Shown here piece by piece: positions 15,873 through 36,996 of a stretch of 64,000 nt of DNA. Position numbers and translations under genes: made by a program. Location: contig OZ253478.1 in assembly GCA_965261835.1 (NCBI GenBank), forward strand, positions 2,337,267 through 2,401,266, read 5' to 3'. Below the pieces are notes generated by a model. The model made no database searches, was not told the origin of the DNA, and worked only from the letters and a program-made list of their open reading frames with translations. Every line of letters begins with the position of its first letter. Position 1 is the first letter of the stretch. Source of the stretch: Dehalococcoidia bacterium (lineage in GTDB: Bacteria; Chloroflexota; Dehalococcoidia; SHYD01).

Positions 15873-16037
15873 GCGGTGGGCGTTGTGTGACGTTCACGCA
15901 CGGTATGCTCTCAGCAGCGCGTTAACGTCCCCAGGCCGCGGCTTCGACTTCGCTCCAAGAAGCCGCTATAATAGCATCTCAGTAGTAACGCACGCAGTAA
16001 CACAAACTGCGGCACATAAATGAACGCAAGGAACGTA

Positions 16038-17894
16038 ATGAACATCATCGTCTGCGTGAAACAAGTTCCCAACGTGGCCGCCATCAAGTTCGACCGTGAG
16101 GCCAAGACCATTGTTCGAGAGGGCGTCCCGCTTCAGCTCAATTCGCTAGACCGTAGAGCGCTTACTCAAGCGTTGGACCTCCGGGACCAACTTGGAGGTA
16201 AGGTCACGGTCATCTCCTTGGGGCCACCTCAGGCCAAGAGCGCGCTCATCGAATGTCTGGCCACCGGTGCAGACGAAGCGATTCTGATCTCAGATCGCGC
16301 CTTTGCGGGGTCGGACACCCTTGCCACCGCCCGCGCGCTGGCCGCAGCCATTCGGAAGCTCCCTTATGACGTGGTGTTCTGCGGCCGTTTCAGCATTGAC
16401 GCCGAGACCGGTCAAGTCGGGCCGGAGGTGGCCGAACTCCTCGACCTCCCGCACGCAACCAACCTCTTCCGCCTGACCGCTGAAGGCGATGGGACCCGGC
16501 TCACCGCGACCCGGGAAGTGGAAGAGGGCTTCGAGATTCTGGACGTGCAGACCCCCTGCCTGTTGACCGCCGGCGAGTTTCTGGTCACACCCCGACGCCC
16601 GACGCCCGACGAGATAGAGCAGTTCGAAGATCATCCGGTCGCAGTCTGGACCGCCGCCGATCTAGGACTAGCCGCCGACCAGATCGGCGCCGCCGGGTCA
16701 CCCACAACCGTGTCCGAGATCCAGGAGTTCGTGGTGCAGCGGGAACAGCGGGTGGTGCAGCAAGACGACCCCGATGCCGCCGCAAAGCTCATCATGGACT
16801 ACCTAATGGCGAAAGGACTTTCCCAACCTTGGGAACGCTCGGTGGCGGCAACGCCGGCGCGGCGGACCGGCGGCGCCCTACGCAGCGACCGCGCGGTCTG
16901 GGTGGTTGCAGACCACGCGCTGGGCCAACTCCGGCACGTGACGCTGGAGCTCCTGGGTAAGGGCGTGGAACTGGCGCACCAACTCAACGGGGAACTAATC
17001 GCCGTCCTCATTGGCAACGATGTGAGCGGCCTTGCGGACACCCTCGCCAGGTACGGCGCCGACCGGGTCTATCTGGCGGAGGACCCCACTTTGGCGCATT
17101 ACAACAGTGCCGCTTATAGCCACGTCCTGAGCGAGGCCATCACCCATTACAAGCCCTACGTGGTTCTGCTAGGAGCTACCATCAACGGGCGGGACCTTGC
17201 GCCGCGGGTTGCCGCCCGGCTGCAGCTTGGCCTCACCGGTGACGCCATTGACCTGGAGATCGATGCGCAGGAACAAGTAGTGCAGCTCAAGCCCGCCTTT
17301 GGCGGCAGCATTGTGGCGCCCATTATCTCCCGTACCGTACCCGTCATTGCTACCGTGCGCCCAGGCATGCTGGCCAGCTTAGCCCCCCAGCCGGAGCAAC
17401 GAGCCGTAGTGGAAAACCTGAATCTCACGTTGAGCAAAGATGACCGGGTACGGTTGTTGGAGTTCCAGCCCACAGTGGGCACACCCGGCTTGGAGCTGGA
17501 CAGCGCAGAGGTAGTGGTGGGCGTGGGCATGGGCGTAGGCAGTGCGGATAACGTGCCGCCCTTCCAAGCCCTTGCCGCTGCTTTTGACGGAGCGCTTGCC
17601 ACCACCCTACCTGCTGTTCGAGGAAAGGTCCTCCCTAGCCAGCTTCAAGTTGGGCTGACCGGCCGATCCATTGCACCGCGCTTCTATTTAGCATTTGCCA
17701 TCAGCGGCGCGCTTAACCACCTCATCGGCATCCAGCGCACCGAGACCATCGTGGCCGTCAACAAAGACCCCGAAGCCGCCATCTTCAAGAGCTGCGACTT
17801 CGGCATCGTCGGCGACTACACCACCATCGTTCCCGCCTTGACCAAACTGGCCAACGAGGCGAAACCAACGCTGGCAGTGCGTAGTACTCACTAG
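16038..17894 (+). CDS. etfBA: electron transfer flavoprotein, fused beta (N-terminal) and alpha (C-terminal) subunits
   Basis: N-terminus MNIIVCVKQVPN... is EtfB-like; from ~aa 290 onwards (VWVVADHALG...LIGNDVSGLADTL...FAD-binding C-terminus) is EtfA-like; a single uninterrupted 620-aa frame. ATG 16038 preferred over 16020. Confidence 0.8.
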   Translation: MNIIVCVKQVPNVAAIKFDREAKTIVREGVPLQLNSLDRRALTQALDLRDQLGGKVTVISLGPPQAKSALIECLATGADEAILISDRAFAGSDTLATARALAAAIRKLPYDVVFCGRFSIDAETGQVGPEVAELLDLPHATNLFRLTAEGDGTRLTATREVEEGFEILDVQTPCLLTAGEFLVTPRRPTPDEIEQFEDHPVAVWTAADLGLAADQIGAAGSPTTVSEIQEFVVQREQRVVQQDDPDAAAKLIMDYLMAKGLSQPWERSVAATPARRTGGALRSDRAVWVVADHALGQLRHVTLELLGKGVELAHQLNGELIAVLIGNDVSGLADTLARYGADRVYLAEDPTLAHYNSAAYSHVLSEAITHYKPYVVLLGATINGRDLAPRVAARLQLGLTGDAIDLEIDAQEQVVQLKPAFGGSIVAPIISRTVPVIATVRPGMLASLAPQPEQRAVVENLNLTLSKDDRVRLLEFQPTVGTPGLELDSAEVVVGVGMGVGSADNVPPFQALAAAFDGALATTLPAVRGKVLPSQLQVGLTGRSIAPRFYLAFAISGALNHLIGIQRTETIVAVNKDPEAAIFKSCDFGIVGDYTTIVPALTKLANEAKPTLAVRSTH

Positions 17895-19054: not shown

Positions 19055-19486
19055 TTACATCTTGAACTCGGCGGGTTCCACGTACTCCCAGGGCTCGCCG
19101 GCCCGGTACTTCGCGGCAATGTCCAGCACCTTCAGCGCGTACTGGAAAGCATAGGGCATACCGGGGCCGCCCGGCACAAAGCCACCGGCGATGGTCCCCA
19201 CCGCTACTGCCTCAAAGATCTCACCGTCAGTTGCGCCGGCTTCAATAGCCGGAATGACATGAATGAGGCAGGCCGGAGAGCGGTACGACACACCGATAGA
19301 TGTGAACATCAACTCTTTAATCTTCCGGGGGAGCGCGCCGTCCGCCCAAATGGTTGCGTAGAAATCGGAGAACGCTTCGCCTGCCGCAGGGTGAACGGTG
19401 TTGATGATCTGGAACATCCGGGGGGTGAAGAGCATCTTCTCTTTCATGTAAGCATTGGCTTGTTCGGCCCGGGACTGGGTAGTCAT
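19055..19486 (-). CDS. carboxymuconolactone decarboxylase (CMD) / AhpD-like family protein
   Basis: 143 aa; AhpD-like fold signatures; last gene of a 5-gene minus-strand operon. Confidence 0.75.
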   Translation of the reverse strand: MTTQSRAEQANAYMKEKMLFTPRMFQIINTVHPAAGEAFSDFYATIWADGALPRKIKELMFTSIGVSYRSPACLIHVIPAIEAGATDGEIFEAVAVGTIAGGFVPGGPGMPYAFQYALKVLDIAAKYRAGEPWEYVEPAEFKM

Positions 19487-19562
19487 ACGTAAGTCCTCCT
19501 GTGTCTATATAGCATACTAGCAATGTTGAGGTAAGCAGATGACAATGTCAATATGGCAAGGG

Positions 19563-20943
19563 TTAAGCGCTCAATAACGGTGGGTCCCGCGCCCGGTCCT
19601 GTGCTCCTAGGCTAAGCACTCGGTCTACAAACGCAGTCGAGAGCCCCAACGAGTTCCGCAGGTCAAACGCGGCGTCAAGATCATCTACTGAGAGATGCTT
19701 GACCGCCTCGGTCTGCTCCAACGCCGCTCGCAACGGCATGCTCTGCTCCACGGCGGTCATTGCAGCCTCGTACACCATCCAGTGTGCGGACTGCTTTCCC
19801 AGCTTCTGGGTGAGCACACCCATCACCGCTTCTGATGCCAGTAACCCGTTCTCTTCATGCAGATTGCGCCGCATCGCTACCGCGTCTATCACTAGTCCGG
19901 CCAGAACATCGCGCGTGATCTGCATCGATTTTCCCGCCAGTACGCATGCTTCCGGTAGTGCCACCCACTCCGCCTTCCAGGGGCGCCCGTCACGCTCGTG
20001 CTCCTGCACCACGCCCTCCAACAACACGGCGGCATCTGCCCGCACCAGCCGCGCGAGCGTTGAGAGGTGCTCCACTGTCTCAGGGTTGCGCTTGTGCGGC
20101 ATGGTGACGCTCCCAACCCTGCCCGGTTCGAAGGGCTCGTACGCTTCCCCGATCTCTGGCCGTTGCAGCGTATAGATCTCGGTGCCAATTTTGGCGCAGG
20201 TCTGGCTGACTAGCGCCAAGAAGTGGGCGAACTCCGCCAGGTTATCCCGCGCCGTGTTCCACACGATGTCCGGCACGCCCACACCCAAGCGGTCCATGAC
20301 CCGGCGTTGCAGCTCCAAGCCCTGCTCCGGCCAAAACGCCAGCGTGCCTACGCCGCCGCACAACTGTCCTAGAACCAACCGCGGCCGCAACTCCTTGAGA
20401 CGCTGAATATGACGGCGTAGCTCGCGCGCCCACACCGCAGCCTTGAAGCCAAAGGTAATGGGCAAGCCGGTCTGGCCGTGCGTGCGGCCGGGCATCATCG
20501 TGTCCCGATGCTCCCGCGCCAGGCGAAGACACTCCGCCTCAATAGCGCGCAGGTCACGATAAGCCACGTCGCAGACGGTGCGGAAGGCAATGGCGTTTGC
20601 GGTGTCGGTGATGTCATGAACGGTGGTGCCGTAGTTGATGTACTCGCCAGCCTCGCCGTCACACACGGTCTGCAACACCCGGATAGTCGAGAGCAATGAA
20701 TGGCTCGTCTCCTGGATGCCGCGGCGGATGGCCTCAATGTCCAACAGCTCAACCTTAGCCTTGCGCGCTACTTCCTCCGCTGCGGTAGATGGAATGAGAC
20801 CCAGCGCCGCCTGCTCCAGAGCGAGCGCCGCCAGCACATCCAGCCAGCGTTGTAACCGGGCGTTGTCGTCAAAGAGCTCACGGAGTTCAGGGGTGCTCCA
20901 GCTATCTCGAAACAGCTCGGAATCCATTAAGTGTACCGGCATG
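19563..20943 (-). CDS. aspartase/fumarase superfamily lyase, PcaB / adenylosuccinate-lyase-like
   Basis: Signature loop GSVTMPHKRNPETVEHL; ATG at 20943 (MPVHLMD...) preceded by GAGG; the longer ORF to 21074 has no support. Confidence 0.75.
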
Positions 20944-20968
20944 ACTCGCCTCGATTTTGGATAGCGTT

Positions 20969-22501
20969 CTAGGAATCTTGTGTCTTGGGGAGCGCGTCCA
21001 CTGCTTGCATCTCGGCAAGTGCTACTAACCCTTGTTCCGCGCCGGCAATCCGGGCGGCCGTCTCCACGCGCCATGTCTCAGCGCTGGCAGTGGCAGCCCG
21101 CACTTCTTCGAGCATACGGGCGGTGGATGCAGGGGAGGCGCCGCCGACGCCCTGCCGTGCAGCCACCAGGGGGAACGGTGTCATCTCATCTTGCAAAAGC
21201 GATGGGCGTATCTTTAATGGCTGGCCCATCACCTCCTGCGCCCCCAGGTCAATTATCGCCGGTGTCATCGTAGGCGCTCCCTGTTCATGGGCCAAGCGAA
21301 CGGCGGCCCCCACAAGACGGTGCGCGGTACGGAAATCCAATCCGTGCTCCTGCACCAACACCTCTGCCAGGTCTGTGCCGTAGGTGTACCCTTCAGTCGC
21401 CCGCTGCGCCATCGCCACCGTGTTAACCGTGATGCTGGCAACCACTCCGGCCATTAACCGCACTGCCTCCAGCGCAAGGTCAAGGGTTGCGGGCACTTCT
21501 CCATACGCGAAGATTCGGTTGTCCACCTGGCCGGAAGGCGTTCTGCCTGTGACAGCCATAGCAGTCAGCTTACCCATGACCTGGCCTGACACGCCCCGGA
21601 TATACGCCAGTGCATAGGGGTTCTTCTTCTGCGGCATGATAATGCTGGTGCGCGCGTGCTCGTCTGCGAGTTCAATAAGACCGAACTCCTCTGTGCACCA
21701 GAGCTGGAGGTCTTCCGCCAGCCGGTCAACTTGCACCGTGAGCGCCACTACCGCCGCCGCTACCTCAATGGGCCCATCCGCCTGCCACATTGCGTCCCGC
21801 GGATGAGGCAGCACGTCGTCAAAGCCCAGCAGTTGGGCCAAGCGTTGCCGATCGAGCGGCAGCCGCGAGCCGTTTGTGCTACCGCCACCCGCCGGACTGC
21901 GGTTTACCCGTTGGAGCGCGGCCTGCAAGCGCTCCAAGTCCCGCAAGGCAGGATAGGCGAATCCCAGCAGGTAATGTGCCAGCGTGGTGGGGTGCGCGTG
22001 CTGCAAGTACGTGTAGTCCGGCATAACCGTCTGGAGATGGGCTTCTGCCTGATCGCATAGTGCGTTAAGGTATGCCGAGAGCGCCTCGGCGAGGTGCAGC
22101 AATCGCTTCCGGACCGCCAGGTGGTATGCCACCGTAGTCGCCTCCCGGCGAGCCCGTCCGGTAGAGAACCAACCGGCAGCGTCAGCATCTTGCTCCACCA
22201 GCCAGTGCTCCCGGTTGGTATACACGTCGCCCCGCTCAGGCGTGAGCGCAATGTGGTCGTATGAGAAGGCCTGCAGCTGCAAGAGCAGCGCTAGCAGCCG
22301 CCGGCCAGGCTCGGAAGGGACGATCCCGGTCTCGACCAGCATGAGCACGTGGGCTAAGTCGGACAACCCCATGCCCTCCCAAAGGTAGGGCGCAAGGCCT
22401 ACTTCCCAGCGGTACGCCGAAGCTACTAACTCGGGCGCGGGCGGCTGTTTTAGCCGCCCGGAGCTAGTCGTCCCCTTCCCAGGGGATGCCGTCTTCGACA
22501 T
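20969..22501 (-). CDS. aspartase/fumarase superfamily lyase, argininosuccinate-lyase-like
   Basis: Signature loop IMPQKKNPYALAYIRG (ArgH-type SxxMPQKKNP); ATG at 22501, or TTG at 22519; overlaps the upstream gene's 3' end. Confidence 0.75.
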   Translation of the reverse strand: MSKTASPGKGTTSSGRLKQPPAPELVASAYRWEVGLAPYLWEGMGLSDLAHVLMLVETGIVPSEPGRRLLALLLQLQAFSYDHIALTPERGDVYTNREHWLVEQDADAAGWFSTGRARREATTVAYHLAVRKRLLHLAEALSAYLNALCDQAEAHLQTVMPDYTYLQHAHPTTLAHYLLGFAYPALRDLERLQAALQRVNRSPAGGGSTNGSRLPLDRQRLAQLLGFDDVLPHPRDAMWQADGPIEVAAAVVALTVQVDRLAEDLQLWCTEEFGLIELADEHARTSIIMPQKKNPYALAYIRGVSGQVMGKLTAMAVTGRTPSGQVDNRIFAYGEVPATLDLALEAVRLMAGVVASITVNTVAMAQRATEGYTYGTDLAEVLVQEHGLDFRTAHRLVGAAVRLAHEQGAPTMTPAIIDLGAQEVMGQPLKIRPSLLQDEMTPFPLVAARQGVGGASPASTARMLEEVRAATASAETWRVETAARIAGAEQGLVALAEMQAVDALPKTQDS

Positions 22502-23288
22502 AGCGGCGCAGCGTCTCAAACCGAAGGCCGCAACGCAGCGCCTCTAGCACCAACACGTCCGAGGGACGGATGTTGGCCAGGTTTACGTTCGGCCCGAACC
22601 GTTGCACAAAATAGTCCTGCTGTTGCTTTAGCGGGGCTTCCCACATGATGTCGTCAACGCCATCGAGTCCAGCCAGGATTGCGTCCAACTTCTCCTCAAT
22701 CACATAGCCGCGCTCATCATAGATACCAACGCCTGTCCCGGACTGACGCGCTTCCATCGTCACTTTGCTGGCCCCGTTCTTCAGATCAAGCTGGATCTGT
22801 TCTAGCATAGCCTCCGACGAGGGCTGCTTAGTCGGATCCTTTTTGCCCACTTCGGAGAACACCTTGAGGCCTAGTTCTATAGAGCGACAAATGGCGTCCG
22901 CCCGCACTGACCCAGGCAAATCAATGGTTCCGTCTGAGACCTCAACCGCGGTGAATCCAAGATCACGCGTCCGCTGGAGGTACTGCGGGTAAACTCCCTT
23001 GAACACTGCGGCTTCAAACAAGGTGCCACCGGGGTACACATCGACACCTTGCGCCGTCATTGTCGCGATCTTTCGCTCTAGCAGCGTCCGCTCAAGAAAG
23101 ACCGATGTGCCGAAAGTGAGCTTCACTTGGTCGATGTAGTCGCCGGAAAGCTCCATAAGATCGTCAATGGCGGCCAGGCCCTGGCAGTGATCCAGCACCA
23201 TCGTGAGGCCGTTGTCACGCGGCTTGACTGCCCGTCCTTCAACAAGGTCTGGGAGAACCCCGTCCCATGGCCGATTGGCGGTCATCAT
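22464..23288 (-). CDS. comA: (2R)-phospho-3-sulfolactate synthase (ComA)-like protein
   Basis: 274 aa; TIM-barrel ComA-family regions (LTMVLDHCQGL...LSGDYIDQVKLTFGTS) resemble archaeal ComA and B. subtilis YitD; start overlaps stop of upstream gene. Confidence 0.7.
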   Translation of the reverse strand: MMTANRPWDGVLPDLVEGRAVKPRDNGLTMVLDHCQGLAAIDDLMELSGDYIDQVKLTFGTSVFLERTLLERKIATMTAQGVDVYPGGTLFEAAVFKGVYPQYLQRTRDLGFTAVEVSDGTIDLPGSVRADAICRSIELGLKVFSEVGKKDPTKQPSSEAMLEQIQLDLKNGASKVTMEARQSGTGVGIYDERGYVIEEKLDAILAGLDGVDDIMWEAPLKQQQDYFVQRFGPNVNLANIRPSDVLVLEALRCGLRFETLRRYVEDGIPWEGDD

Positions 23289-24172
23289 GTGCTGGTCTCG
23301 GAGGGAGTATCGGTGAAGCGTGCGGTGAAGTCCTCCAGCGCCGCTTCTATCTGGCGCAAAGTCGAGCCCCAGGGAACGGTGAGCCGGTTGCCCTCCACCT
23401 CACAGTTGAACTCGTACAGGCAGCACTTGAGCACCGTGGGCACGCCGTCCTGCGGAGCCAGGTCCCGGGGGCAGATATTTACCCACTCCGGCTCCTTGCC
23501 GTAGAAATGTTGGTATATCTCCAGCGAACGCTTGCATCCGAGGAGCAAGGCATCACCTGGGTCTTCGGGGCGCTGGTCCAGGGATAGCGCCGGCGCCTCT
23601 ATTTGAAAGCCGTCAACCTTGCAGGGCGTGATAATGCCAGACACCTGTCGCCCTTCCAGCAAGGAGTGCAGGTCGAGATTCTCCTCCCGCGCTTCTATGG
23701 CGGGCAAATCCGCATAGTCAATGACCTGCTGCACCAGAAGCGCCAGTTTGGCCGGAGACGGCGGCACCACGTCGAACACACGGAGCGGCATGGCCTTGGC
23801 CTCTAGGGTAAAGTTCACATGTTCGAAGCGGCCTTTGACCACCGCGGCCTTTTTGCCGCCATTGCGCGCGGCACGCGCCAGGTGGGTGGCGTTCATGACG
23901 TCAACGTCCGGATCCTCCACCCAGGCGGTATCCTCGGGCATCGCCAGAATTTCCACCGCAGTAATAGGACTGAATAGCGCATCCGGCTCTGCCCGCTTCA
24001 CCGCGGTTATGGCTACATCCGGCCCATTGTGGAGCGCCACGAAGTCGGTGCGCCGGTACCCCTCCTTACCGATCAGGTAGCGCGCAATGGTATCCCGCTC
24101 CAGCGGTATCGTCACATCCTGAACACTCACCTCACGGCACGTGCAGGCTGGTAGCTCTGGCGTTGCCTTCAT
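23285..24172 (-). CDS. hypothetical protein, first gene of the ComA/lyase operon
   Basis: 295-aa ORF with translational coupling (ATGA overlap) to the ComA-like gene; no motif I can name. Confidence 0.5.
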   Translation of the reverse strand: MKATPELPACTCREVSVQDVTIPLERDTIARYLIGKEGYRRTDFVALHNGPDVAITAVKRAEPDALFSPITAVEILAMPEDTAWVEDPDVDVMNATHLARAARNGGKKAAVVKGRFEHVNFTLEAKAMPLRVFDVVPPSPAKLALLVQQVIDYADLPAIEAREENLDLHSLLEGRQVSGIITPCKVDGFQIEAPALSLDQRPEDPGDALLLGCKRSLEIYQHFYGKEPEWVNICPRDLAPQDGVPTVLKCCLYEFNCEVEGNRLTVPWGSTLRQIEAALEDFTARFTDTPSETST

Positions 24173-24182
24173 ACCACACTCC

Positions 24183-24425
24183 TTATGGCTCTGACGGCCG
24201 TTTCCCTACAAAGATATACACCAGCCAGCCGATCATGAGCACGGCAAAGACTGGGAGTGTCCAATGGTAGCTCGAATCCGGCCAGAACACGATAAGGTAC
24301 AGTATCGCGGCCACCCACACGCCATAGTTGAACCACCGCATGAACGCCGGTGGCGCTCCCCGGCCAACGCGCACTTCGCCGCCTATTGGTTCATCGGAGC
24401 TGAGTGGCGCAGTCTCTCCGCTCAT
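24183..24425 (-). CDS. small two-helix membrane protein (possibly oxidase-associated CcoQ/FixQ-like)
   Basis: 80 aa; two hydrophobic helices; lies between the oxidase genes and the ComA operon on the same strand. Confidence 0.35.
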   Translation of the reverse strand: MSGETAPLSSDEPIGGEVRVGRGAPPAFMRWFNYGVWVAAILYLIVFWPDSSYHWTLPVFAVLMIGWLVYIFVGKRPSEP

Positions 24426-24623
24426 CTCTGTCAGGCTTCCTTAACCGTCACTATCATCAAAAACACGGTACTTAACCGCCTCGCCACTACTGCGAAACAA
24501 ACCGCTGCGCAACGCCCATAGCAGCAGCAGCCCCCACACCGCCACCGATAACGTGAAGGACGCAAATATGAGGACGTGGATTGGGTATAGCATGCAAATA
24601 GCGTACTGCTCTTCGTACTGCTC

Positions 24624-25109
24624 TTATTGTAGCGTAAGAAGGTAATCTGCCAAAGCCTCCAGCTCCACATCCGGGAGGTGACGGTAAAACGGCATGAGTG
24701 TACCCGGATTGAAGAGCTGTGGGTTTTTCAAATGCTGGATGTGCCACTCCCGGCTATTGCCCGGCGCACGGCTTGCCACATGAGAGAGGTCCGGCCCTTG
24801 GCGGCTGGTGCCCCACAGCACGGGTTGCTGATAGGCGTAATCCCCCGGCAGAGATTCCGGCCCGATGTCACCCTTAGTGCGCACCGTACCCGTATCAACC
24901 TCCACAGCACGCACTTGCTGGGTGTGACAATACACGCAGCCCTCACGGATGTAGATCGCCCGCCCTCTCAGCTCCTGAGCCGTGTACTGCACGGCCAGTG
25001 CCGTGGGTGGCGGCGACTCCACTACCGGCAGAACCACGGTGACCAACAAGCCCGCCACCAGAAAGACGAGCGACCCGATGAGCAGGTACGCAATGCTGGG
25101 TTGTCGCAT
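24624..25109 (-). CDS. ccoO: membrane-anchored mono-haem cytochrome c subunit (CcoO / FixO-like) of a C-family haem-copper oxidase
   Basis: N-terminal TM helix, single CVYCH haem-binding motif; immediately downstream of the catalytic subunit gene (8-bp gap). Confidence 0.7.
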   Translation of the reverse strand: MRQPSIAYLLIGSLVFLVAGLLVTVVLPVVESPPPTALAVQYTAQELRGRAIYIREGCVYCHTQQVRAVEVDTGTVRTKGDIGPESLPGDYAYQQPVLWGTSRQGPDLSHVASRAPGNSREWHIQHLKNPQLFNPGTLMPFYRHLPDVELEALADYLLTLQ

Positions 25110-25116
25110 ACTACGC

Positions 25117-26574
25117 CTACGCCTCTGCTACCCCAACCTGGGCAGGATGTCCCCTCTGGCGCACGGTGTTGATCAGGTTGTAAGCGAAGACAAACTGGCC
25201 TAGCACCATGGCAGCGCCCGCAAGCAATCGAATAAAGAAGAATGGTTGCAGAGAACGCACCGTCTCGATAAACGGAATACCACCCGTACTCCAGTTCTGG
25301 CCTTGTATAAGTCCCGCAATCCATAAACTGGTCATGAACACCACTAAACCAACCAGCGTCAGCCAGTAGTGCCACTCTAACAGCTTCTGGCTGGCAAAGG
25401 GCCGATCCAGCATGCGCGAGAGCAACGCATAGACTAACGCAATGCAGAGAAAAGTGTACGCTCCAAACAGCGCCAGGTGAGAGTGGCCAATGACCCAATT
25501 AGTGAAATGGACGTAGGCATTAAAGCCGCGAAACGACTGGGCGATCCCTTGGACACAGGTGAGAAAGTAAAAAATGCAGCCGGTAGCCACGAAACGCAAT
25601 GCCACGTCCGTCGCCATCTTGTGCCACGCGCCTTCCATGGTTTTCACAAAGTTCACCAGGAACGCCGCGTTGCCAATCCCTGCCAGTATGCTGAACGACA
25701 CGGACAGTAGCTCCAACCACTCTGGGCCGGGTCCATACAACAGGTGGTGCTGGCCCGTCCAAACGCTGGAAAAGCCCCATAGCGCCAGCCGGTGGCTGAA
25801 TAATGGGTTACCGGTTAAACGCGGCAGCAAGTAGAAGAACAGTCCCAACGCACCCGTGGTGAACCAGATATTGAAAATATTGTGCACGTAGAAGAAGTTC
25901 ATGATGGCGTCACCCGTGCCCAAATAGGCGCCACTCGGGTCCCAAATCTTGTTCCCTAACGCGTACACCACCGGGCCAATAGCCGTGGCAGCCATTGCGC
26001 TCCAGACCGTGATGTACATCCGCGGCTCTTTCCGGCGCCAAACCGTTTGCCAGATGTTGACCGCCACCAACACAAAGCACAGCATCAGCAGTAGGTCTAG
26101 GGGCCAAACCGCCTCGGCGTACTCCCGCCCCTGGGTGAAGCCCAACGGTAGAGTCAGCGCCACGCCCAGCACAAAAGCATTCCAGAGCACCAGGGTGACT
26201 CGAGCCAGCCACTCGGAATAGAGCGCCGTGCCGGTAAGCCGTGGGACAAGGTAGAGCAACGCGCCCACGTAGACCATGGACAGCCATCCAAACATCGCCA
26301 CGTTGACGTGCATCGGGCGCAGGCGGCCGAAGATTACCGCTGGGCGGAGTGCCTCAGGGACCCATTCCTGGGTGCGGGCATCGAGGAGGAAAAACGACAT
26401 CACCAGGCCCACGAGCACCGGGAGCATGAGCCAGAAGGCGCCCGAATAGAGGAACCACCGAGCCGCCAAATCATGCCGCTCGGCACGCCTATCAGAAGAT
26501 AGGGGTGATGTTATGACGTGGGGCAGGGTCACAACGGCGCCATTCTCCCGCTTTCCAGGTTCATGTACCCGCAA
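25117..26574 (-). CDS. ccoN: haem-copper oxidase catalytic subunit I, cbb3-type (CcoN-like) or related NO-reductase family
   Basis: 12-TM protein with conserved His ligands (MHVNVAMFGWLS; WTGQHHLLYGPG; IGHSHLALFGA); subunit order N-O as in cbb3 oxidases. Confidence 0.75.
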   Translation of the reverse strand: MRVHEPGKRENGAVVTLPHVITSPLSSDRRAERHDLAARWFLYSGAFWLMLPVLVGLVMSFFLLDARTQEWVPEALRPAVIFGRLRPMHVNVAMFGWLSMVYVGALLYLVPRLTGTALYSEWLARVTLVLWNAFVLGVALTLPLGFTQGREYAEAVWPLDLLLMLCFVLVAVNIWQTVWRRKEPRMYITVWSAMAATAIGPVVYALGNKIWDPSGAYLGTGDAIMNFFYVHNIFNIWFTTGALGLFFYLLPRLTGNPLFSHRLALWGFSSVWTGQHHLLYGPGPEWLELLSVSFSILAGIGNAAFLVNFVKTMEGAWHKMATDVALRFVATGCIFYFLTCVQGIAQSFRGFNAYVHFTNWVIGHSHLALFGAYTFLCIALVYALLSRMLDRPFASQKLLEWHYWLTLVGLVVFMTSLWIAGLIQGQNWSTGGIPFIETVRSLQPFFFIRLLAGAAMVLGQFVFAYNLINTVRQRGHPAQVGVAEA

Positions 26575-27010: not shown

Positions 27011-28186
27011 ATGTCTCTCAACAACCTCCCACTATTTCCAGTGACCGTTGTCGGAAGCTGGCCGCGGCCCTCATACCTGGTTGATGCGTTCCGTAAGCGT
27101 AAGGCGGGCCGTCTTAGCTTTAAGGATCTCAACGAGATGGCGGACCAGGCAGTGCTGGAAGCACTACGCTATCAGGATGAAGCGGGCGTCGACATCGTGA
27201 GCGACGGTGAGCAACGGCGGGACAACTTCTACTCCTTTGTCGTGGAGAAACTGGACGGCATTGAGCTCATGTCGCTGGCAGAGATCATGGACGTAGTGAG
27301 CGACAAGGCCTCCTTCGACCAGATCCTTCGCAGCATGGATGCTCCCGCGTTCGCCATTCATAACCCCACCGTAACGGGTCGCATCGAGCGACGGACGTCG
27401 CTGGCCTTGGACGAGTACGAGTTCCTACGGCAGCACACCGACAAGCCCATCAGAGTTGCCCTGCCCGGTCCGTACCTGTTGGCCCGCTCCATGTGGGTTG
27501 CCGGCATCACCGACAAAGCGTACCCATCCCAGGAAACCCTGGCCGATGATATCGTGCGCGTGCTACGGGAAGAGGTGTTGGAGTTAAAGGCTGCGGGGGT
27601 CGAGTTCATCCAGTTCGATGAGCCGGTCATCACCGACGTTGTCTTCCGCCCAGAACGCAAGGAGCGCACTTTCATGTGTGCGTCTATGGCCGCTACCACC
27701 GGTGACGCCGATGAAGAGCTCTACAAGGCGGCCTACTTGATGAACCAAGTTATGCGGGATATCGACGGGATCAAGACGGGCGTCCATGTCTGCCGGGGCA
27801 ACTGGAGCCGCCAAGAGGGCGCGCTGCTCGCCGGCACCTACGAACCACTGATGGGGTGCATGATGGACATGCCCGTCGATCAGCTGGTGTTGGAATATGC
27901 TACGCCGCGCGCCGGCGAGCTGGCTGTTTTCAGCAAGTACCCCAAGCAAAAAGAGATCGGCCTCGGCGTGATTAATCCCCGCACCGACGAGATAGAAGGG
28001 CCGCAGTCCGTGATTGACCGGACAGAGGAGGCCCTCAAGTACTTCGCGCCGAATCAGATCTACCTCAACCCCGACTGCGGCTTCGGCACCTTTGCCGAGC
28101 GGCCAATGAACCCCGCGGACATTGCTGCGCAGAAGGTGGCCGTCATCAGCCAGGCGGCACAGGAACTCCGGAAACGGCACGGGTAG
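27011..28186 (+). CDS. cobalamin-independent methionine synthase (MetE) C-terminal-domain-like protein
   Basis: 391 aa; UroD/MetE-like fold signatures (VVGSWPRP...VDIVSDGEQRRDNF...HVCRGNW). Confidence 0.8.
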   Translation: MSLNNLPLFPVTVVGSWPRPSYLVDAFRKRKAGRLSFKDLNEMADQAVLEALRYQDEAGVDIVSDGEQRRDNFYSFVVEKLDGIELMSLAEIMDVVSDKASFDQILRSMDAPAFAIHNPTVTGRIERRTSLALDEYEFLRQHTDKPIRVALPGPYLLARSMWVAGITDKAYPSQETLADDIVRVLREEVLELKAAGVEFIQFDEPVITDVVFRPERKERTFMCASMAATTGDADEELYKAAYLMNQVMRDIDGIKTGVHVCRGNWSRQEGALLAGTYEPLMGCMMDMPVDQLVLEYATPRAGELAVFSKYPKQKEIGLGVINPRTDEIEGPQSVIDRTEEALKYFAPNQIYLNPDCGFGTFAERPMNPADIAAQKVAVISQAAQELRKRHG

Positions 28187-28192: not shown

Positions 28193-28717
28193 ATGACCAA
28201 CAGCCAAGAGACGAACGGGATTGACACCAGCGCCCTGACCGAGGCGCTCGAAACGGTCAGGGAGGCCGGTGCCCGCAGCGGGCCAAAGGCCGCCCGGGTG
28301 CGGTGGGTGGGTGGACTCAAGCTGCGCTCTTACGTGCGCAACCACTCGTTCATGATCGATGAACCCACTCATCTCACCGGTGAGGATGAAGCGCCCAACG
28401 CGTTGGAATACGTGCTCGGTGCGCTGGGGGCATGCTACGCCACCGGCTTTGTGCTGAATGCTACGCTGCGAGGCATAGAGCTCTACAACCTAGAAGTCAC
28501 TATGGACTCCACCCAGGACAATGTCTTCACCTTCCTGCAGCTTGAAGAGGCGGGACACTCCGGCTTCGACAACATTACCGCCAAGCTTTACGTGCAGGCT
28601 GACGCAGATGAAGCAGTGCTCCGGGAAATTTGGGAGACTACCCTCCAAACTTCACCCGTGGGCAATTCTCTCACCCGCACCGTGGCCATCAAACCGGAAC
28701 TCTCGGTGTTGGGCTGA
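28193..28717 (+). CDS. OsmC/Ohr family peroxiredoxin-like protein
   Basis: 174 aa; conserved Cys pair regions (LGALGACYATG) typical of OsmC. Confidence 0.75.
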   Translation: MTNSQETNGIDTSALTEALETVREAGARSGPKAARVRWVGGLKLRSYVRNHSFMIDEPTHLTGEDEAPNALEYVLGALGACYATGFVLNATLRGIELYNLEVTMDSTQDNVFTFLQLEEAGHSGFDNITAKLYVQADADEAVLREIWETTLQTSPVGNSLTRTVAIKPELSVLG

Positions 28718-28798: not shown

Positions 28799-28875
28799 GG
28801 TGGGCGTAGCCGAGCGGTTAAGGCGCCAGGTTGTGGCCCTGGAGACCGAGGGTTCGAATCCCTCCGTCCACCCCA
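28799..28875 (+). tRNA. tRNA-His (anticodon GTG) with encoded G-1 and CCA
   Basis: Manual fold: 8-bp acceptor stem including G-1:C73, anticodon loop TTGTGGC, T-loop GGTTCGAATCC, 3' CCA. Confidence 0.9.
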
Positions 28876-29202
28876 TATCCTCTTCATCCCTAGCACCGTC
28901 TTAGCACTGTAGTAGCCCGGGCCAGCGAATCTGCCGACGTGCGAGCGCGTGAGCAGCTCTCAAGGAGCAACCAGTGAAGGGTTTTATCTCGGTTTGTGTC
29001 AGCTTCGGCCTGATCTTTCTCTTCTTCATCCTCATCACCGTGTCCATGCGCAGCGCCCATCCCTAATACTCGGCGCAAACCCCGCACAGCCCACAGACCG
29101 CACAGCGCGCCGCACAGCGCCCTCACTATGAGTGAGGGCGCTACCCGCGCCCGGCTGACCGCACGCTGCATTACGTTACCCGATCGGCTAGAATGAGGCC
29201 GT

Positions 29203-29278
29203 GCGCCCGTAGCTCAACGGATAGAGCACCAGACTTCGGATCTGGGGGTTGGGGGTTCGAGTCCCTCCGGGCGTGCCA
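29203..29278 (+). tRNA. tRNA-Arg (anticodon TCG)
   Basis: Manual fold: acceptor GCGCCCG/CGGGCGT, D-arm GCTC..GAGC, anticodon loop CTTCGGA, T-arm GGGGGTTCGAGTCCCTC, CCA encoded. Confidence 0.85.
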
Positions 29279-31823: not shown

Positions 31824-34800
31824 ATGACGGGCCAGCTATTCACCGACTACTTTCTCACCGCCGGCATCAAGGCCACCGAGGAGTGGCGGGAGTCAGACAC
31901 CGCGTTTGCCGCCTTCCGGGCCACCCTCGGCGCGCGCTACCGGCAGTTCAGCAGCAACCAACAACCCAACGAAGCCACTACCGAGCAGGAGCTGATCCGC
32001 CCGGTCCTGGAGGCGCTGGGATGGACTGACCACCTGCCGCAGCAGGGCACAACCGGTAACGAGGACATCCCGGACAATCTCCTGTTCATCGATGCGGCGT
32101 CCAAGGACCGCGCCGCCGGTCGAGCCAACCCGCAAGAACGCTACCAGGACGCCGCGGTGGTCGAAGAGAGCAAGCAGTTCGGTCTGAAGCTAGACGCCCT
32201 TACCAAAGCCCCCGGACAACACAGCAAGACGCCACACAGCCAGATACTCCAATACCTCTCGACTGCCGAGATCGCGTCGGAGAGCCGGATCCGCTGGGGG
32301 TTCCTGACCAACGGCGGCGTGTGGCGGCTCTACGACCAACGCGCCCGCCCGCGCGCCACCGGCTACTTCGAAGCCGACCTCGGGAAGCTGCTCGACTCTG
32401 GCGACGCAGACGCCCTGCGCGCCTTCTACCTGCTGTTCCGCCGCGACTCGTTCACCCGCACCAAGGGGGCCACCGCCACCTTCCTCGTGCAGGCGCTGGC
32501 CGAGGGCCGCCGCTACGAGGAGCAGGTGGCGCGGAACCTCTCCAGCGTGGTCTTCGATCAGGTCTTCCCCCGGCTGGTAACCGCACTCGCCAGCACGCCA
32601 GGGGTAGCGCTGCCGGAGGCGCGCGATGCCGCGCTGATCTTCCTCTACCGGCTGCTGTTCGTGCTTTACGCCGAGGACCGCGGGCTGCTCCCCGTCAACG
32701 ACGAGCGTTACGAAGACTACGGCCTGCGCAAGCCGGTACGCGATGATATCGCCCACAAGCAGACCACTGGCGCGCCCTTCTCGTCCGTGGCCACCGCCTA
32801 CTACGACCACCTGATGCAGCTGTGGCGACTCATCGACAAGGGCGACGCGTCCATCGGCCTGCCGCCCTACAACGGCGGCCTGTTCGCCGACGAGGCCGCC
32901 CCGCTGCTGGCGCGGGCCCGCCTGCCCGACGCGGTGGTCGCCCCGATCGTCTACGACCTTAGCCACGCTGAAACCGCCGACGGGCGCCGCTTCGTCAACT
33001 ACCGCGACATGTCGGTCCAGCAGCTCGGCTCGATCTACGAGCGGCTGCTGGAGCAGGAGCCGGTCCGCGCCGACGACGGCGGGATCGTCATCCGCCCCAA
33101 CAGCTACGCCCGCAAGGACAGCGGTAGCTTCTACACGCCGCAGGAGCTGGTCGACCTGATCGTCGACCGGACGCTGAAGCCGCTGGCGGAGGAGCGGCTG
33201 CGAGCATTCGAGCAGAAGGCCGCCGCGCTGAAGCACGACCACCGGCCCAAGTCCGAACGGCTGGCCGATCTGCGCAAGCTGGACCCCGCCGAGGCTGTCC
33301 TCGACCTCAAGGTGCTCGACCCCGCCATGGGCAGCGGCCACTTCCTGGTCACCGCCGTCGACTTTCTGTCCGACTACATCGCCGATCTGGTCGAGTCCGT
33401 GCCGGCGGTGCCGGACTGGCTGGATGGCGCGGGCGAGTATGAATCGCCGTTGGTGGGGCGGGTGGCCGCGATTCGGGACGACATTCGCGGCCGGGCCCGG
33501 CAGGCGGGATGGGTGATAGACGAGGAGGCCCAACTCACCGACCAAGCCATCATCCGCCGCATGGTGCTCAAGCGCTGCATCTACGGCGTGGACAAGAACC
33601 CCCTCACCGTGGAGCTGGCCAAGGTCTCGCTCTGGCTCCACAGCTTCACCGTCGGCGCGGCGCTCTCTTTCCTCGACCACCACCTCCGCTGCGGCGACTC
33701 CCTGGTCGGTTTGCGGGTGCGGGAGGCCAGGGACGAGTTGCTCCGGTTTGGCCCCATGTTTACTTCGAGCGCCGTCGCGGGGGCGGAAGCCGCCGCGGCC
33801 GGAATGCAGCGCATCGAGGAGATGTCCGACGCCGACATCTCGGAGGTAGAGCAGTCCGCCGCATTGTTCCGAGGCGTCGAGCAGACTACTGCTGACCTAC
33901 GCGGCCTGCTGGACTTCCTCACCGGCTTGCACTGGCACACCGCGGGGATGAAATCGAAGGAGCGCGCGGCCATCGAGGGGCACATCGCCGTGGCGCTGGG
34001 GGCGGACCAAGCGAACGGCTTGCAGCTACTGGCGCACGGCCCGGCGCATGGCCCAAACGAGAACGCCACCACCGCGCCCGCGGACGGCTCCTCACCCTAC
34101 GCTGCGCTGTGGCAGAACGCCACCGGCATCGCCGACCGTGAAACGTTCCTGCACTGGGAGGCGGCCTTCCCCGGCGTCTGGCAACGGTGGCAGGAAGCGC
34201 AACCCCAAGGCGGCTTCGACGCCGTCATCGGTAACCCGCCATGGGACCACATTGAACAGCCAGAGGTAGAGTGGTTCGCCACTCGTTCGCCTGACATAGC
34301 CCTGGCGCCGACCGCGGCTGCCCGCAAGACCTACATACAGCGGCTGCGCAACGCCGGGGCGCCACTGGCCGCCGAGTTCGACGCCGCCAAGGCGCAGGCC
34401 GATGACCTGGGCCAACTGGTGCGCGCGTCCGGCCATTACCCCCTGCTGAGCGGCGGCCGCATCAACCTCTACTCCCTGTTTGTCGAGCGCGCCATGGGGC
34501 TTGTCAAGCCGGACGGATTCGTCGGGCTGCTCACGCCATCGGGCATCTACGCCGACAAGACCGCCGCCGACTTCTTCAAGTCCATCTCAACCAGCGGGCG
34601 GGTAGCTGGGATATTCGATTTCGAGAATCGCCGCTCCGGAATGAGGCTACCGCACTTCTTCCCTGATGTCGACTCAAGGTTCAAGTTTTGCGCCCTGATA
34701 TTCGGCGGGGAGGAGCGACGATTTGATGAGACCGCGTGCGCCTTCTTCCTCCACGACACCGCGACCATCGAAGACCCCGACCGCTGTTTCCCGCTGGCGC

Positions 34801-35873
34801 CGGCGGACTTTGCCAGGGTGAACCCCAACACCGCCACCGCGCCGATCTTCCGCACCTGCCGCGACGCCGACATCACCCGCGGCATCTACGAGCGGCATCC
34901 GGTGCTGGTGGACCGCTCCGGGGGTGACGAGCGCCGCGCCTGGCCGGTCAAGTTTATGCAGGGGCTATTCAATATGACTTCAGACTCCCACCTGTTCCGG
35001 ACCGCGGCCCAGCTCGAAGCTGCGGGCTTCTACCCGGTCCAGGGCAACCGCTGGAAGAAGGGCGAGGAGACCTACTTGCCGCTGTACCAGGGCCGGATGA
35101 TCCGGCACTTCGACCACCGCGCCAACTCGGTCCGAGTCAACCCTGAGAACACGCACAATCCCTACCTGAGCCAGGAGGTCAGCGCAGCGCAGCACGCGGA
35201 TCCCAGCTTTCTGCCACATACTCAATACTGGGTGCCGGCCGTCGAGGTGGAGTCGGCTTTGCCCGAAAGTCGCGGGTACACGCTAGCGTTCCGTGACATT
35301 ACCAATCCTACCAACATGAGAACGATGATCGCTTCCATCGTTCCAGCGGTAGGTTTTGGGCACACAGCTCCCCTACTTATCGGAGACGACACCCTGGCTG
35401 CCACGTGTCTCGTGGCGAATCTGAATGCCCTATGTCTGGACTTCGTTACGAGACTAAAGGCCCAAGGCACCCATATGAACTGGTTCATCGTCGAGCAACT
35501 CCCCGTCATCGCGCCCGACGGCTACGACCGGCGGTTCGGGGAAAAGACGGCCCGTGAGATCGTCCGTGACCACGTGCTCCGCCTCAGCTACACCGCGCAC
35601 GACATGGCGCCGTTCGCCCGCGACCTCGGCTACGACGGCCCGCCGTTCATCTGGGACGAGGAGGCGCGCCGCCACCTGCGGGCCCGGCTCGACGCGCTGT
35701 ACTTCCACCTCTACGGGCTGAGCAAGGACGACGCGGGCTACATCCTCGGCACCTTCCCCATCGTGCAGCGGCAAGACGAGGCGGCGTTCGGGCGCTACCG
35801 CACGCGCGAGCTAGTGCTGGCATACATGAACGCCCTCGCCGCCGGCGACACCGAGACCGTGATGGCGGTGTAA
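31824..35873 (+). CDS. single-polypeptide type IIG/IIL restriction-modification enzyme (MmeI-like; nuclease + N6-adenine DNA methyltransferase + target-recognition region)
   Basis: N-terminal HsdR-N-like PD-(D/E)xK domain (IPDNLLF...VVEESKQF...QILQYL...GFLTNGGVWRLY); MmeI-like helical region (LLFVLYAEDRGLLP, PYNGGLFADE); MTase motif I KVLDPAMGSGHFLV and motif IV VIGNPPWDHIEQ; ~450-aa C-terminal region with no Walker A (GxxxxGK[ST]) motif seen. Confidence 0.75.
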   Translation: MTGQLFTDYFLTAGIKATEEWRESDTAFAAFRATLGARYRQFSSNQQPNEATTEQELIRPVLEALGWTDHLPQQGTTGNEDIPDNLLFIDAASKDRAAGRANPQERYQDAAVVEESKQFGLKLDALTKAPGQHSKTPHSQILQYLSTAEIASESRIRWGFLTNGGVWRLYDQRARPRATGYFEADLGKLLDSGDADALRAFYLLFRRDSFTRTKGATATFLVQALAEGRRYEEQVARNLSSVVFDQVFPRLVTALASTPGVALPEARDAALIFLYRLLFVLYAEDRGLLPVNDERYEDYGLRKPVRDDIAHKQTTGAPFSSVATAYYDHLMQLWRLIDKGDASIGLPPYNGGLFADEAAPLLARARLPDAVVAPIVYDLSHAETADGRRFVNYRDMSVQQLGSIYERLLEQEPVRADDGGIVIRPNSYARKDSGSFYTPQELVDLIVDRTLKPLAEERLRAFEQKAAALKHDHRPKSERLADLRKLDPAEAVLDLKVLDPAMGSGHFLVTAVDFLSDYIADLVESVPAVPDWLDGAGEYESPLVGRVAAIRDDIRGRARQAGWVIDEEAQLTDQAIIRRMVLKRCIYGVDKNPLTVELAKVSLWLHSFTVGAALSFLDHHLRCGDSLVGLRVREARDELLRFGPMFTSSAVAGAEAAAAGMQRIEEMSDADISEVEQSAALFRGVEQTTADLRGLLDFLTGLHWHTAGMKSKERAAIEGHIAVALGADQANGLQLLAHGPAHGPNENATTAPADGSSPYAALWQNATGIADRETFLHWEAAFPGVWQRWQEAQPQGGFDAVIGNPPWDHIEQPEVEWFATRSPDIALAPTAAARKTYIQRLRNAGAPLAAEFDAAKAQADDLGQLVRASGHYPLLSGGRINLYSLFVERAMGLVKPDGFVGLLTPSGIYADKTAADFFKSISTSGRVAGIFDFENRRSGMRLPHFFPDVDSRFKFCALIFGGEERRFDETACAFFLHDTATIEDPDRCFPLAPADFARVNPNTATAPIFRTCRDADITRGIYERHPVLVDRSGGDERRAWPVKFMQGLFNMTSDSHLFRTAAQLEAAGFYPVQGNRWKKGEETYLPLYQGRMIRHFDHRANSVRVNPENTHNPYLSQEVSAAQHADPSFLPHTQYWVPAVEVESALPESRGYTLAFRDITNPTNMRTMIASIVPAVGFGHTAPLLIGDDTLAATCLVANLNALCLDFVTRLKAQGTHMNWFIVEQLPVIAPDGYDRRFGEKTAREIVRDHVLRLSYTAHDMAPFARDLGYDGPPFIWDEEARRHLRARLDALYFHLYGLSKDDAGYILGTFPIVQRQDEAAFGRYRTRELVLAYMNALAAGDTETVMAV

Positions 35874-35878
35874 GTCTA

Positions 35879-36035
35879 CCCCCGTCATTGCGAGGAGCCT
35901 GCGACGTGGCAATCCGGGGTGGGGTGGCCGGCCGGTCGCGGGGAGTGTCCCCTGCCCCCGCTTCCCCAAGCGCCCCGCCCCCACCCCAGATTGCTTCGCT
36001 GCGGCTCGCAATGACGGGAAGCGGGGGGAGCCGCG
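35879..36035. repeat. ~155-bp long imperfect palindrome (MITE/REP-like element), copy A
   Basis: Terminal inverted repeats CCGTCATTGCGAGG ... CCTCGCAATGACGG; internal complementary arms CAATCCGGGGTGGGG / CCCCACCCCAGATTG; ~95% identical to copy B. Confidence 0.8.
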
Positions 36036-36772: not shown

Positions 36773-36786
36773 CGCGAGGGGGTGGC

Positions 36787-36940: not shown

Positions 36941-36996
36941 CCGAGTACCTTGGGCAGCGGCATCTGGTCCGCCGTGTCCGAGTTGAGGATATGGTG

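Follow-up and report, generated by a model that had tools for sequence, protein, structure and literature searches.

A predicted Xcb-type coenzyme M gene cluster without a linked xcbE in a Dehalococcoidia bacterium

Introduction

Coenzyme M (CoM) was long regarded as a cofactor of methanogens, with a narrow second life in bacteria that degrade alkenes and epoxides. What, then, would a set of CoM-type genes make, and for what use, where no epoxide genes adjoin it? The question is raised by five minus-strand genes at positions 19055-24172 of a 64,000-nucleotide stretch of a Dehalococcoidia bacterium (Chloroflexota; contig OZ253478.1 of assembly GCA_965261835.1, positions 2,337,267 to 2,401,266 of the forward strand), hereafter the window, to which all coordinates refer. 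A sequence-only reading had taken these genes for a candidate CoM or sulfonate biosynthesis cluster, composed of a ComA-like synthase, two lyases of the aspartase/fumarase superfamily (AFS), an unknown protein and a CMD/AhpD-like protein.

The Xanthobacter pathway, reconstituted by Wu et al. (2022), comprises five genes, xcbABCDE (PMC9457059). XcbB converts phosphoenolpyruvate (PEP) and sulfite to phosphosulfolactate. Elimination of phosphate by XcbC, a homologue of argininosuccinate lyase, then yields sulfoacrylate, to which XcbD, a homologue of adenylosuccinate lyase, adds cysteine; the product is 3-sulfopropionyl-cysteine. The pyridoxal phosphate (PLP) enzyme XcbE then decarboxylates and cleaves the cysteine adduct to sulfoethanethioaldehyde, which the [2Fe-2S] protein XcbA reduces to CoM (PMC9457059). 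The sequence-only reading had assumed a separate phosphate-eliminating lyase working beside an argininosuccinate-lyase homologue, and was mistaken on this point: XcbC itself eliminates phosphate, and the second lyase is the one that adds cysteine (PMC9457059).

Xcb genes occur in at least 578 species-level genomes, including a whole class of clusters without epoxide enzymes, for which one must ask what purpose CoM serves.

Results

The xcbABCD array

All five open reading frames (ORFs) lie where the reading had placed them and carry the domains it had named, with E-values of 1e-8 to 1e-184 (Pfam/NCBIfam), so the array is not due to chance. Judged by sequence, four of the five genes are predicted orthologues of XcbA-XcbD of the Xanthobacter CoM pathway, in canonical order. 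Identities to the Xanthobacter proteins, near full length, are 39% for XcbA, 49% for XcbB, 45% for XcbC and 42% for XcbD, and the four genes are co-directional, tightly spaced and colinear with Xaut_5051-5054. Together with the NCBIfam scores given below, these identities bear out the choice of an Xcb-type cluster over a mixture of argH, purB or pcaB and a beta-ketoadipate pair. The product would most likely be CoM, or else a mercapto-sulfonate closely similar to it.

The first gene (23285..24172, minus strand, 295 aa) had been left as an unknown protein occupying the slot of XcbE. It encodes a DUF7714/XcbA-family protein (NF052538, 295.7 bits against a cutoff of 150; PF24830, DUF7714, 228.4 bits) and stands in the canonical place of xcbA, upstream of xcbB. 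The family-invariant residues H118, C184, C213, C234, C250 and C251 are all kept, and the protein is a predicted [2Fe-2S] terminal reductase. Its AF2 model has a pLDDT of 93.4 and no close solved relative, which agrees with the published account, in which no known protein is homologous to XcbA (PMC9457059). Of at least 578 GTDB-representative matches the 80 highest-scoring were compared, and the best of them is 67% identical and comes from a Dehalococcoidia metagenome-assembled genome (MAG).

The second gene, xcbB (22464..23288, minus strand, 274 aa), encodes a ComA-family (2R)-phospho-3-sulfolactate synthase, the enzyme acting on PEP and sulfite. It scores 279.8 bits with PF02679 and 306.9 bits with TIGR03849 (arch_ComA, cutoff 280), and aligns over its full length to Methanocaldococcus jannaschii ComA (1qwg, 178.6 bits). 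This alignment shows that the ComA motifs VE[IV]SDG and EVGKK are conserved. A look-up of the exact XcbB protein gave no match.

The two lyase genes follow, xcbC at 20969..22501 and xcbD at 19563..20942, both on the minus strand. The longest ORF of xcbC spans 20969-22519, reaching a TTG at 22519, and that of xcbD spans 19563-21074. Starts were set from the gene calls of the sister genome L003, with an XcbA 99% identical to the window's, and from the points where the hidden Markov model (HMM) alignments begin. They are probably ATG 22501 for xcbC, predicting 510 aa, and ATG 20942 for xcbD, predicting 459 aa.

The genes had been described as all translationally coupled or overlapping. The first four are tightly packed: xcbA and xcbB overlap by 4 nt (ATGA), xcbB and xcbC by 38 nt, and xcbC and xcbD are separated by 26 nt. 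The fifth, the CMD gene, is not translationally coupled: it follows a 76-nt gap and has its own AGGAGG.

Signatures of the two lyases

XcbC is an argininosuccinate-lyase-like AFS enzyme (Lyase_1 + ASL_C2). Its top match is NF052535, at 552.9 bits against 303 bits for argH, covering profile positions 10-493 of 495, and it is 45% identical to Xanthobacter XcbC over 458 aa. XcbD is an AFS enzyme resembling adenylosuccinate lyase and carboxymuconate-lactonizing enzyme (CMLE) (Lyase_1 + ADSL_C), 42% identical to Xanthobacter XcbD over 448 aa. It reaches 614 bits with NF052536 (cutoff 600) and stays under the cutoffs of purB (309.8 against 326.2), pcaB (260.6 against 355.75) and PRK09053 (342.1 against 595).

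The active-site motifs point the same way. XcbC carries TYLQ and the loop RTSIIMPQKKNP (R-T-S-I-I-MPQKKNP), whereas the argininosuccinate lyase (ASL) 6iem has THLQ and GSSIMPQKKNP. In the alignment of the two, the ASL His becomes Tyr and the second Ser of GSS becomes Ile, within a family pattern R-x-S-[KVI]. Xanthobacter XcbC has the same TYLQ, and the loop RASKILPQKRNP (R-A-S-K-I-LPQKRNP). Across the orthologues of the fetched loci the loop pattern was found in 70/74 and TY[LM]Q in 48/74, the remainder lying outside the search patterns. The corresponding loop of XcbD, GSVTMPHKRNPE, reads GSVT, in agreement with a family form GS[IV]T (GS[IV]TMPHKRNPE), while adenylosuccinate lyases (ADL) have GSS. 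Both lyase signatures are thus common to the Xanthobacter enzymes and most orthologues in the fetched loci. The replaced His and second Ser positions are ones that we take to be catalytic in ASL and ADL.

The first reading had held that, taken singly, these genes would be mis-called argH and purB/pcaB; with the Xcb models on top by a wide margin and the ASL/ADL residues replaced, its preference for Xcb-type lyases is upheld. Because of these Xcb-specific active-site substitutions, neither lyase is predicted to be a housekeeping argH, purB or pcaB product. What they have in common with ASL, ADL, CMLE and Tad1 is the superfamily fold and the tetrameric-lyase motifs; the best solved relatives are 6iem (ASL) for XcbC and 3c8t, 9h4e (Tad1) and 1re5 (CMLE) for XcbD. 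ASL and ADL differ in the His and Ser positions just described and in their HMM scores.

Absence of XcbE across a clade

The sequence-only reading had noted the absence of XcbE, and this was confirmed: with the Xanthobacter and Methylocystis XcbE as queries, no tblastn match at E<=0.01 was found across the 64-kb window. No PF00291 protein was present among the 45 window ORFs scanned against Pfam, a set that omits a few small ORFs.

How general is this absence? We fetched 80 XcbA-containing loci from species-representative genomes, of at least 578 matching genomes, and added further loci (all numbered with the prefix L) by exact-protein look-ups and a metagenome scan. XcbE was counted in loci that have XcbD and at least 1.5 kb of downstream sequence. 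In neighbour-joining (NJ) trees of XcbA and of XcbD, the window, L003, L087, L088, L005 and L085 form a long branch of their own. Outside this clade XcbE was present in 55/59 loci, 44-60% identical to Xanthobacter XcbE and almost always clustered; inside it, in 0/8 distinct loci (Fisher p = 7.6e-8, a value that ignores shared ancestry).

The genes of the cluster have not diverged evenly. Compared with the nearest loci outside the clade (L064 and L090), the window is 67-68% identical for XcbB, 63-64% for XcbC, 84% for CMD and 59-61% for CcoN, but only 56% for XcbD and 40-41% for XcbA. The enzymes flanking the XcbE step are therefore the ones that diverged. At positions at least 95% conserved elsewhere, the clade-specific changes are G85S, W101Y, Q109H and I279V in XcbD, and P11T, Y12C, E134D, Q218E and H220Y in XcbA, where Y12C gives C10-T-C12.

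Two architectures were found in the clade. In the window, L003 and L087 the order is ccoN-ccoO-...-xcbA-B-C-D-CMD. In L085, L088, L005, L169, L171, L172 and L174, xcbA-xcbD is followed by a rhodanese, a class-V PLP enzyme (Aminotran_5) or both, with no xcbB/xcbC nearby; one source names this PLP enzyme an L-cysteine/cystine lyase. Because a different PLP enzyme and a sulfurtransferase stand exactly at the xcbE position in these sister loci, our data suggest that the XcbE step has been displaced non-orthologously in the clade. A C-S lyase or a persulfide relay is a plausible mechanism, and EgtE is a precedent for a class-V PLP enzyme acting as C-S lyase.

Upstream of xcbA-xcbD in L088, L172 and L174 we also observed a divergent SdhB-like/SdhA-like pair (Fer2_3 + FAD_binding_2), and L169 shows an SdhB-like gene. 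This pair may be another source of an unsaturated acid substrate, or plain synteny.

The CMD/AhpD-like gene

The last gene of the array (19055..19486, minus strand, 143 aa) encodes an AhpD/CMD-fold protein with a single conserved Cys, matching PF02627 at 33.6 bits (cutoff 23) and no NCBIfam model near its cutoff. Throughout Chloroflexota and Acidobacteriota its orthologues keep 63-84% identity, and 52 columns of their alignment are invariant. They have an invariant motif S-P-x-C-[IL]-I-H, in the window S70-P-A-C73...H76, that aligns with the CxxC...H of the AhpD-like proteins 3bey, 5dik and 1vke. The likeness to the latter lies in the CMD fold and in the Cys...His of the redox motif. The window protein differs from them by a Ser in place of the first Cys (12/12 orthologues), by unusually high cross-phylum conservation and by its linkage to a cbb3-like oxidase.

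The first reading had this gene take the place of XcbE. This does not fit its distribution: at least nine loci (L006, L027, L036, L042, L071, L118, L137, L138 and L162) contain both this gene and XcbE, and its tightest link is to the oxidase. In a metagenome scan seeded with CMD, ccoO ends within 1.5 kb upstream in 16/33 loci with enough upstream sequence, and xcbA is within reach in only 4/14 well-flanked loci. The usual order in relatives is ccoN-ccoO-CMD-...-xcbA, whereas the window and L087 have xcbABCD after the oxidase genes and before CMD. CMD follows xcbD directly in the window, L087 and L096. Since CMD is tied to the oxidase, its position after xcbD reflects a rearrangement and not a replacement of XcbE. 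From its sequence, we regard the protein as a predicted 1-Cys AhpD-like redox protein of the oxidase module, outside the Xcb pathway proper. The variant route proposed in the first reading thus survives in the form of the clade-wide absence of XcbE, and fails where it invoked the CMD gene.

A beta-ketoadipate function for XcbD and CMD was also considered and rejected: the pcaB models are under cutoff, and CMD is AhpD-like and oxidase-linked.

The oxidase, MetE-like and OsmC neighbourhood

Upstream of 24172 the array continues on the same strand, at 24183-26574, with ccoN-like and ccoO-like genes and two small membrane ORFs. The ccoN-like gene (25117..26574) encodes the catalytic subunit, with a probable start near 26469 giving about 450 aa (PF00115, 253.1 bits; TIGR00780, 267.5 against a cutoff of 583). 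The ccoO-like gene (24624..25109) encodes a mono-haem cytochrome c subunit (PF02433 FixO, 111.2 bits). All NCBIfam matches of the two are under cutoff, and they represent a divergent C-family (cbb3-type) haem-copper oxidase, which may be an O2 reductase or an NO reductase. They are followed by orf50 (24441..24593), a small hydrophobic protein between ccoO and orf80, and by orf80 (24183..24425), which has two predicted membrane helices and no family match and lies 10 nt upstream of xcbA; both are called as genes in L003. The gaps along ccoN-ccoO-orf50-orf80-xcbA are, in order, 7, 30, 15 and 10 nt, a spacing from which the xcb genes are probably co-transcribed with the oxidase. The window ccoN is 53-79% identical to the ccoN beside xcb or CMD in L087, L090, L064, L071, L137 and L036.

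Across a divergent gap of 436 nt from the ccoN-led array lie two plus-strand genes. The first (27011..28186) encodes a MetE-like, C-terminal-domain-only zinc thiol alkyltransferase (PF01717, 106.8 bits) that is under every NCBIfam methionine-synthase cutoff and 22% identical to Xanthobacter EaCoMT (E=2e-17). Its residues H259/C261/E295/C356 align with H218/C220/E275/C341 of EaCoMT and are invariant in 12 orthologues. The second (28193..28717) encodes an OsmC-family protein (PF02566, 57.2 bits). The MetE-like gene adjoins xcb in L035, L036, L043, L045, L081, L087, L090 and L137, always paired with OsmC, and the pair is 57-82% conserved across phyla. A rhodanese gene often precedes it, although none does in the window. 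From its gene neighbourhood, the MetE-like protein is a candidate CoM-using enzyme.

The set of ccoN, ccoO, 1-Cys AhpD-like, rhodanese, MetE-like, OsmC and xcb genes recurs in Anaerolineae, Dehalococcoidia and Acidobacteriota (L087, L064, L089, L090, L118, L137, L152 and L162), and in L137 all eleven genes of the set are on one strand. No EaCoMT or 2-KPCC orthologue was found in the loci with CMD, CcoNO or MetE-like genes, L157 alone giving a 2-KPCC-class match that was not assessed. In the window, tblastn with epoxide genes returned only the 22% MetE-family match to EaCoMT and a generic short-chain dehydrogenase/reductase (SDR) at 57.3 kb, and no 2-KPCC. The proteobacterial, actinobacterial and methanotroph xcb clusters among the loci fetched are, on the contrary, always beside EaCoMT/2-KPCC genes, which for methanotrophs is the published context (PMC11507031). 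We found no literature description of xcb, DUF7714 or CoM in the oxidase context in Chloroflexota, SAR202 or Acidobacteriota.

Other features of the window

The cluster is flanked by genes for glycine cleavage, enolase, purF, purH and an electron transfer flavoprotein (ETF) fusion, and the best outside matches come from Dehalococcoidia and other Chloroflexota MAGs. The fusion (16020-17894, plus strand) joins ETF beta and alpha in 624 aa and is kept beside the cluster in L003 and L087. A XerC/D-type tyrosine recombinase (6261-7199, plus strand) has the glycine-cleavage genes on one side and an InhA-like protease on the other. Beyond OsmC, tRNA-His and tRNA-Arg (28800-29278, plus strand) precede acyl-CoA dehydrogenases; in the same place L003 has two extra genes (2967-4648; DUF4365 and a 394-aa protein), a small strain-specific indel. 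The stretch 31824-37851 holds a 1349-aa Eco57I-like type IIG restriction-modification protein followed, on the opposite strand, by a protein with an AbiJ N-terminal domain. The GC content falls to 0.56 at 36-38 kb, and the stretch is probably a small islet of defence genes.

At 37990-45309 we observed an acetolactate-synthase-like thiamine pyrophosphate (TPP) enzyme under all curated cutoffs, a fused AhbA/AhbB (AhbAB) siroheme decarboxylase of the alternative haem pathway, and Mo-hydroxylase subunits resembling CO dehydrogenase and xanthine dehydrogenase. Further out there are also an F420/luciferase-like oxidoreductase and several MFS transporters. Four MFS transporters are found at 50314-60696, with three tandem LigB-type extradiol dioxygenase paralogues, an RraA-like aldolase and an SDR. 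This is a paralogue-rich aromatic-catabolism block, unrelated to the XcbD/CMD pair.

Discussion

We consider it likely that the region encodes a bacterial Xcb-type CoM pathway, re-wired without a clustered XcbE and set in an accessory CMD/oxidase context. By orthology with Xanthobacter, XcbB would add sulfite to PEP to form phosphosulfolactate, and XcbC would eliminate phosphate to leave sulfoacrylate. XcbD would then add a sulfur nucleophile, which in Xanthobacter is cysteine, to the double bond, and XcbA, as Fe-S reductase, would make the final thiol. The step that XcbE performs in Xanthobacter, after XcbD and before XcbA, appears not to be encoded with the cluster in this lineage, and would most likely be carried out by a non-orthologous enzyme, a sulfur relay or an unlinked gene, with XcbD and XcbA, on either side of it, apparently co-diverged. 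The thiol would serve alkyl transfer and/or peroxide and disulfide chemistry (redox or detoxification) with the MetE-like, OsmC and AhpD-like set. Given that no epoxide or alkene genes are present, the product is probably used by these neighbours, although this is the weakest part of our account.

A more detailed scenario can be sketched, and we offer it tentatively. In it the clade has lost XcbE and obtains its sulfur through a persulfide relay, through a class-V C-S lyase with a rhodanese, or by means of a decarboxylating XcbD, with XcbD and XcbA co-evolved; CoM would in addition be the thiol of an oxidase/AhpD/OsmC/rhodanese/MetE-like module in Chloroflexota and Acidobacteriota, and not an alkene cofactor.

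Several observations weigh against this interpretation of the cluster as a whole. XcbC is 22 bits under the curated NF052535 cutoff of 575. No tblastn match was found in the window with rhodanese, Aminotran_5, Aminotran_3 or PALP+ACT queries, and the Aminotran_5 of the sister clade has no close orthologue on the species' 2.7-3.1-Mb contigs down to 185 bits, which is a weak negative. Sister loci have the xcbA-xcbD pair on its own, so that the product could be something else than CoM. We identified no enzyme that consumes CoM, and the part assigned to the MetE-like, OsmC and AhpD-like proteins comes from gene neighbourhood only. Finally, a promoter/terminator scan of 18.7-27.2 kb did no better than on shuffled sequence, and it is for this reason that the operon boundaries are drawn from spacing alone.

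Could XcbE simply be encoded elsewhere in the ~2.8-Mb genome, beyond the 64-kb window, with the chemistry unchanged from Xanthobacter? Sister loci do have xcbB/xcbC unlinked from xcbA-xcbD, and XcbD is above its curated cutoff. A search of a 5.8-billion-protein set with an XcbE profile, of whose 7858 matches the best 120 (>=498 bits) were examined, has no bearing on an unlinked XcbE. Such a scattered gene is a serious possibility, yet one we do not favour: the split between 55/59 and 0/8 loci, the drop of XcbA and XcbD to 40-41% and 56% identity where neighbouring genes keep 63-84% (L064/L090), and the different PLP enzyme and rhodanese exactly at the place of xcbE in sister loci all speak for a changed step. 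Another reading is that the product differs, XcbD and XcbA making another thiol such as an undecarboxylated mercapto-sulfopropionate or a cysteine adduct. The lack of the decarboxylating XcbE in the window and clade loci would agree with this, as would the clade-specific substitutions in both proteins and the lone xcbA-xcbD modules next to SdhAB-like, Aminotran_5 and rhodanese genes. We nevertheless find it unlikely, as the cluster retains both xcbB and xcbC, in the canonical order and with the signatures of their families intact, so that the substrate should be sulfoacrylate, the CoM precursor, while XcbD exceeds its curated cutoff and XcbA keeps every family-invariant residue. Moreover, CMLE-like AFS enzymes can decarboxylate, and Tad1 (9h4e) is among the closest solved relatives of XcbD; loss of XcbE need not therefore mean loss of decarboxylation.

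Two further explanations fare worse. That the CMD-family protein has replaced XcbE as decarboxylase is suggested by the enzyme after which the family is named, gamma-carboxymuconolactone decarboxylase, and by the position of its gene directly after xcbD in three loci. We judge this very improbable in view of the nine loci where the same orthologue co-occurs with XcbE, of its preference for ccoO over xcbA as a neighbour, of the S-x-x-C...H that aligns with the AhpD redox motif, and of the gap and ribosome-binding site that set the gene apart; nor can a CMD protein supply the C-S cleavage. That the lyases are housekeeping argH and purB (or pcaB) gene products, clustered by coincidence, is scarcely credible. 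XcbC does exceed the argH cutoff (TIGR00838, 303 against 279.5 bits) while falling just short of its own, and the window also contains purH and purF. Against this, the Xcb models beat argH, purB and pcaB by 250-350 bits, the purB and pcaB models are under cutoff, XcbC has Tyr and Ile at the positions of the ASL His and second Ser and XcbD has Val at that of the second Ser, and the four-gene order is that of Xanthobacter xcbABCD. The curated 'exception' cutoff of XcbC seems slightly too strict for the clade of the window. There is a practical point here: because it passes the argH cutoff and narrowly misses that of XcbC, this XcbC is liable to be mis-annotated as an argininosuccinate lyase.

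The pathway itself is known and has curated HMMs, and most of our finding is not new. What goes beyond the descriptions we found is the clade-wide form without XcbE, with co-diverged XcbD and XcbA, and the conserved non-epoxide neighbourhood of CoM genes across two phyla. The clade is a natural experiment on the least-understood steps of the pathway, namely thiolation, decarboxylation and the XcbA reduction. If CoM does prove to be the thiol of an oxidase/AhpD/OsmC module, it would have a physiological role that is new for bacteria.

Comparison with known systems

The archaeal ComA-ComB-ComC-ComDE pathway has its first step and enzyme family in common with the window (XcbB resembling ComA), and differs in its later steps, for which Xcb uses AFS lyases and XcbA in place of ComB/C/DE (PMC9457059). 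The window has a single TPP enzyme (37990-39615), and it resembles acetolactate synthase, although no search was aimed at ComB/C/DE.

A close described system is that of Xanthobacter autotrophicus Py2 (plasmid pXAUT01, Xaut_5051-5055; PMC9457059). The order and orientation of xcbA-D are the same, as are the lyase signature loops and the Cys/His set of XcbA. Xanthobacter has XcbE, which the window does not, and carries the genes for EaCoMT, 2-KPCC and the hydroxypropyl-CoM dehydrogenases immediately upstream, none of which adjoin xcb here. Its cluster sits on a catabolic plasmid, whereas that of the window lies among glycine-cleavage, enolase and purF/purH genes, consistent with a chromosome. 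The window differs further in having xcb directly after a cbb3-like oxidase, and in the separate long-branch clade of its XcbA and XcbD.

The methanotroph and Burkholderiales clusters (Methylohalobius crimeensis, PMC11507031; L008, L012, L020 and L057) have the same biosynthetic genes. XcbE is always present in them and epoxide-metabolism genes adjoin, while the window has neither. A shuffled order, OsmC-xcbB-xcbA-xcbD-xcbE-xcbC, was observed on the Methylocystis iwaonis plasmid pSS37A-Re-1 (L002, 7656-13755), with no EaCoMT within the fetched +/-9 kb; the record annotates only a hypothetical protein, an adenylosuccinate lyase family protein and an argininosuccinate lyase.

Close in gene content is a neighbourhood that we call Type-2, of which we found no description in the searchable literature. 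It occurs in Anaerolineae, Dehalococcoidia and Acidobacteriota (L137, L036, L071, L118 and L162), with the same ccoN/ccoO, AhpD-like, MetE-like and OsmC set as the window and accessory proteins 53-84% identical to those of the window. Type-2 loci mostly keep XcbE and often a rhodanese, in contrast to the window, which is without both. In Type-2 loci xcb comes after the CMD gene, as in the order ccoN-ccoO-CMD-rhodanese-MetE-like-OsmC-xcbABCDE of L137, whereas in the window xcbABCD is placed between ccoO and CMD.

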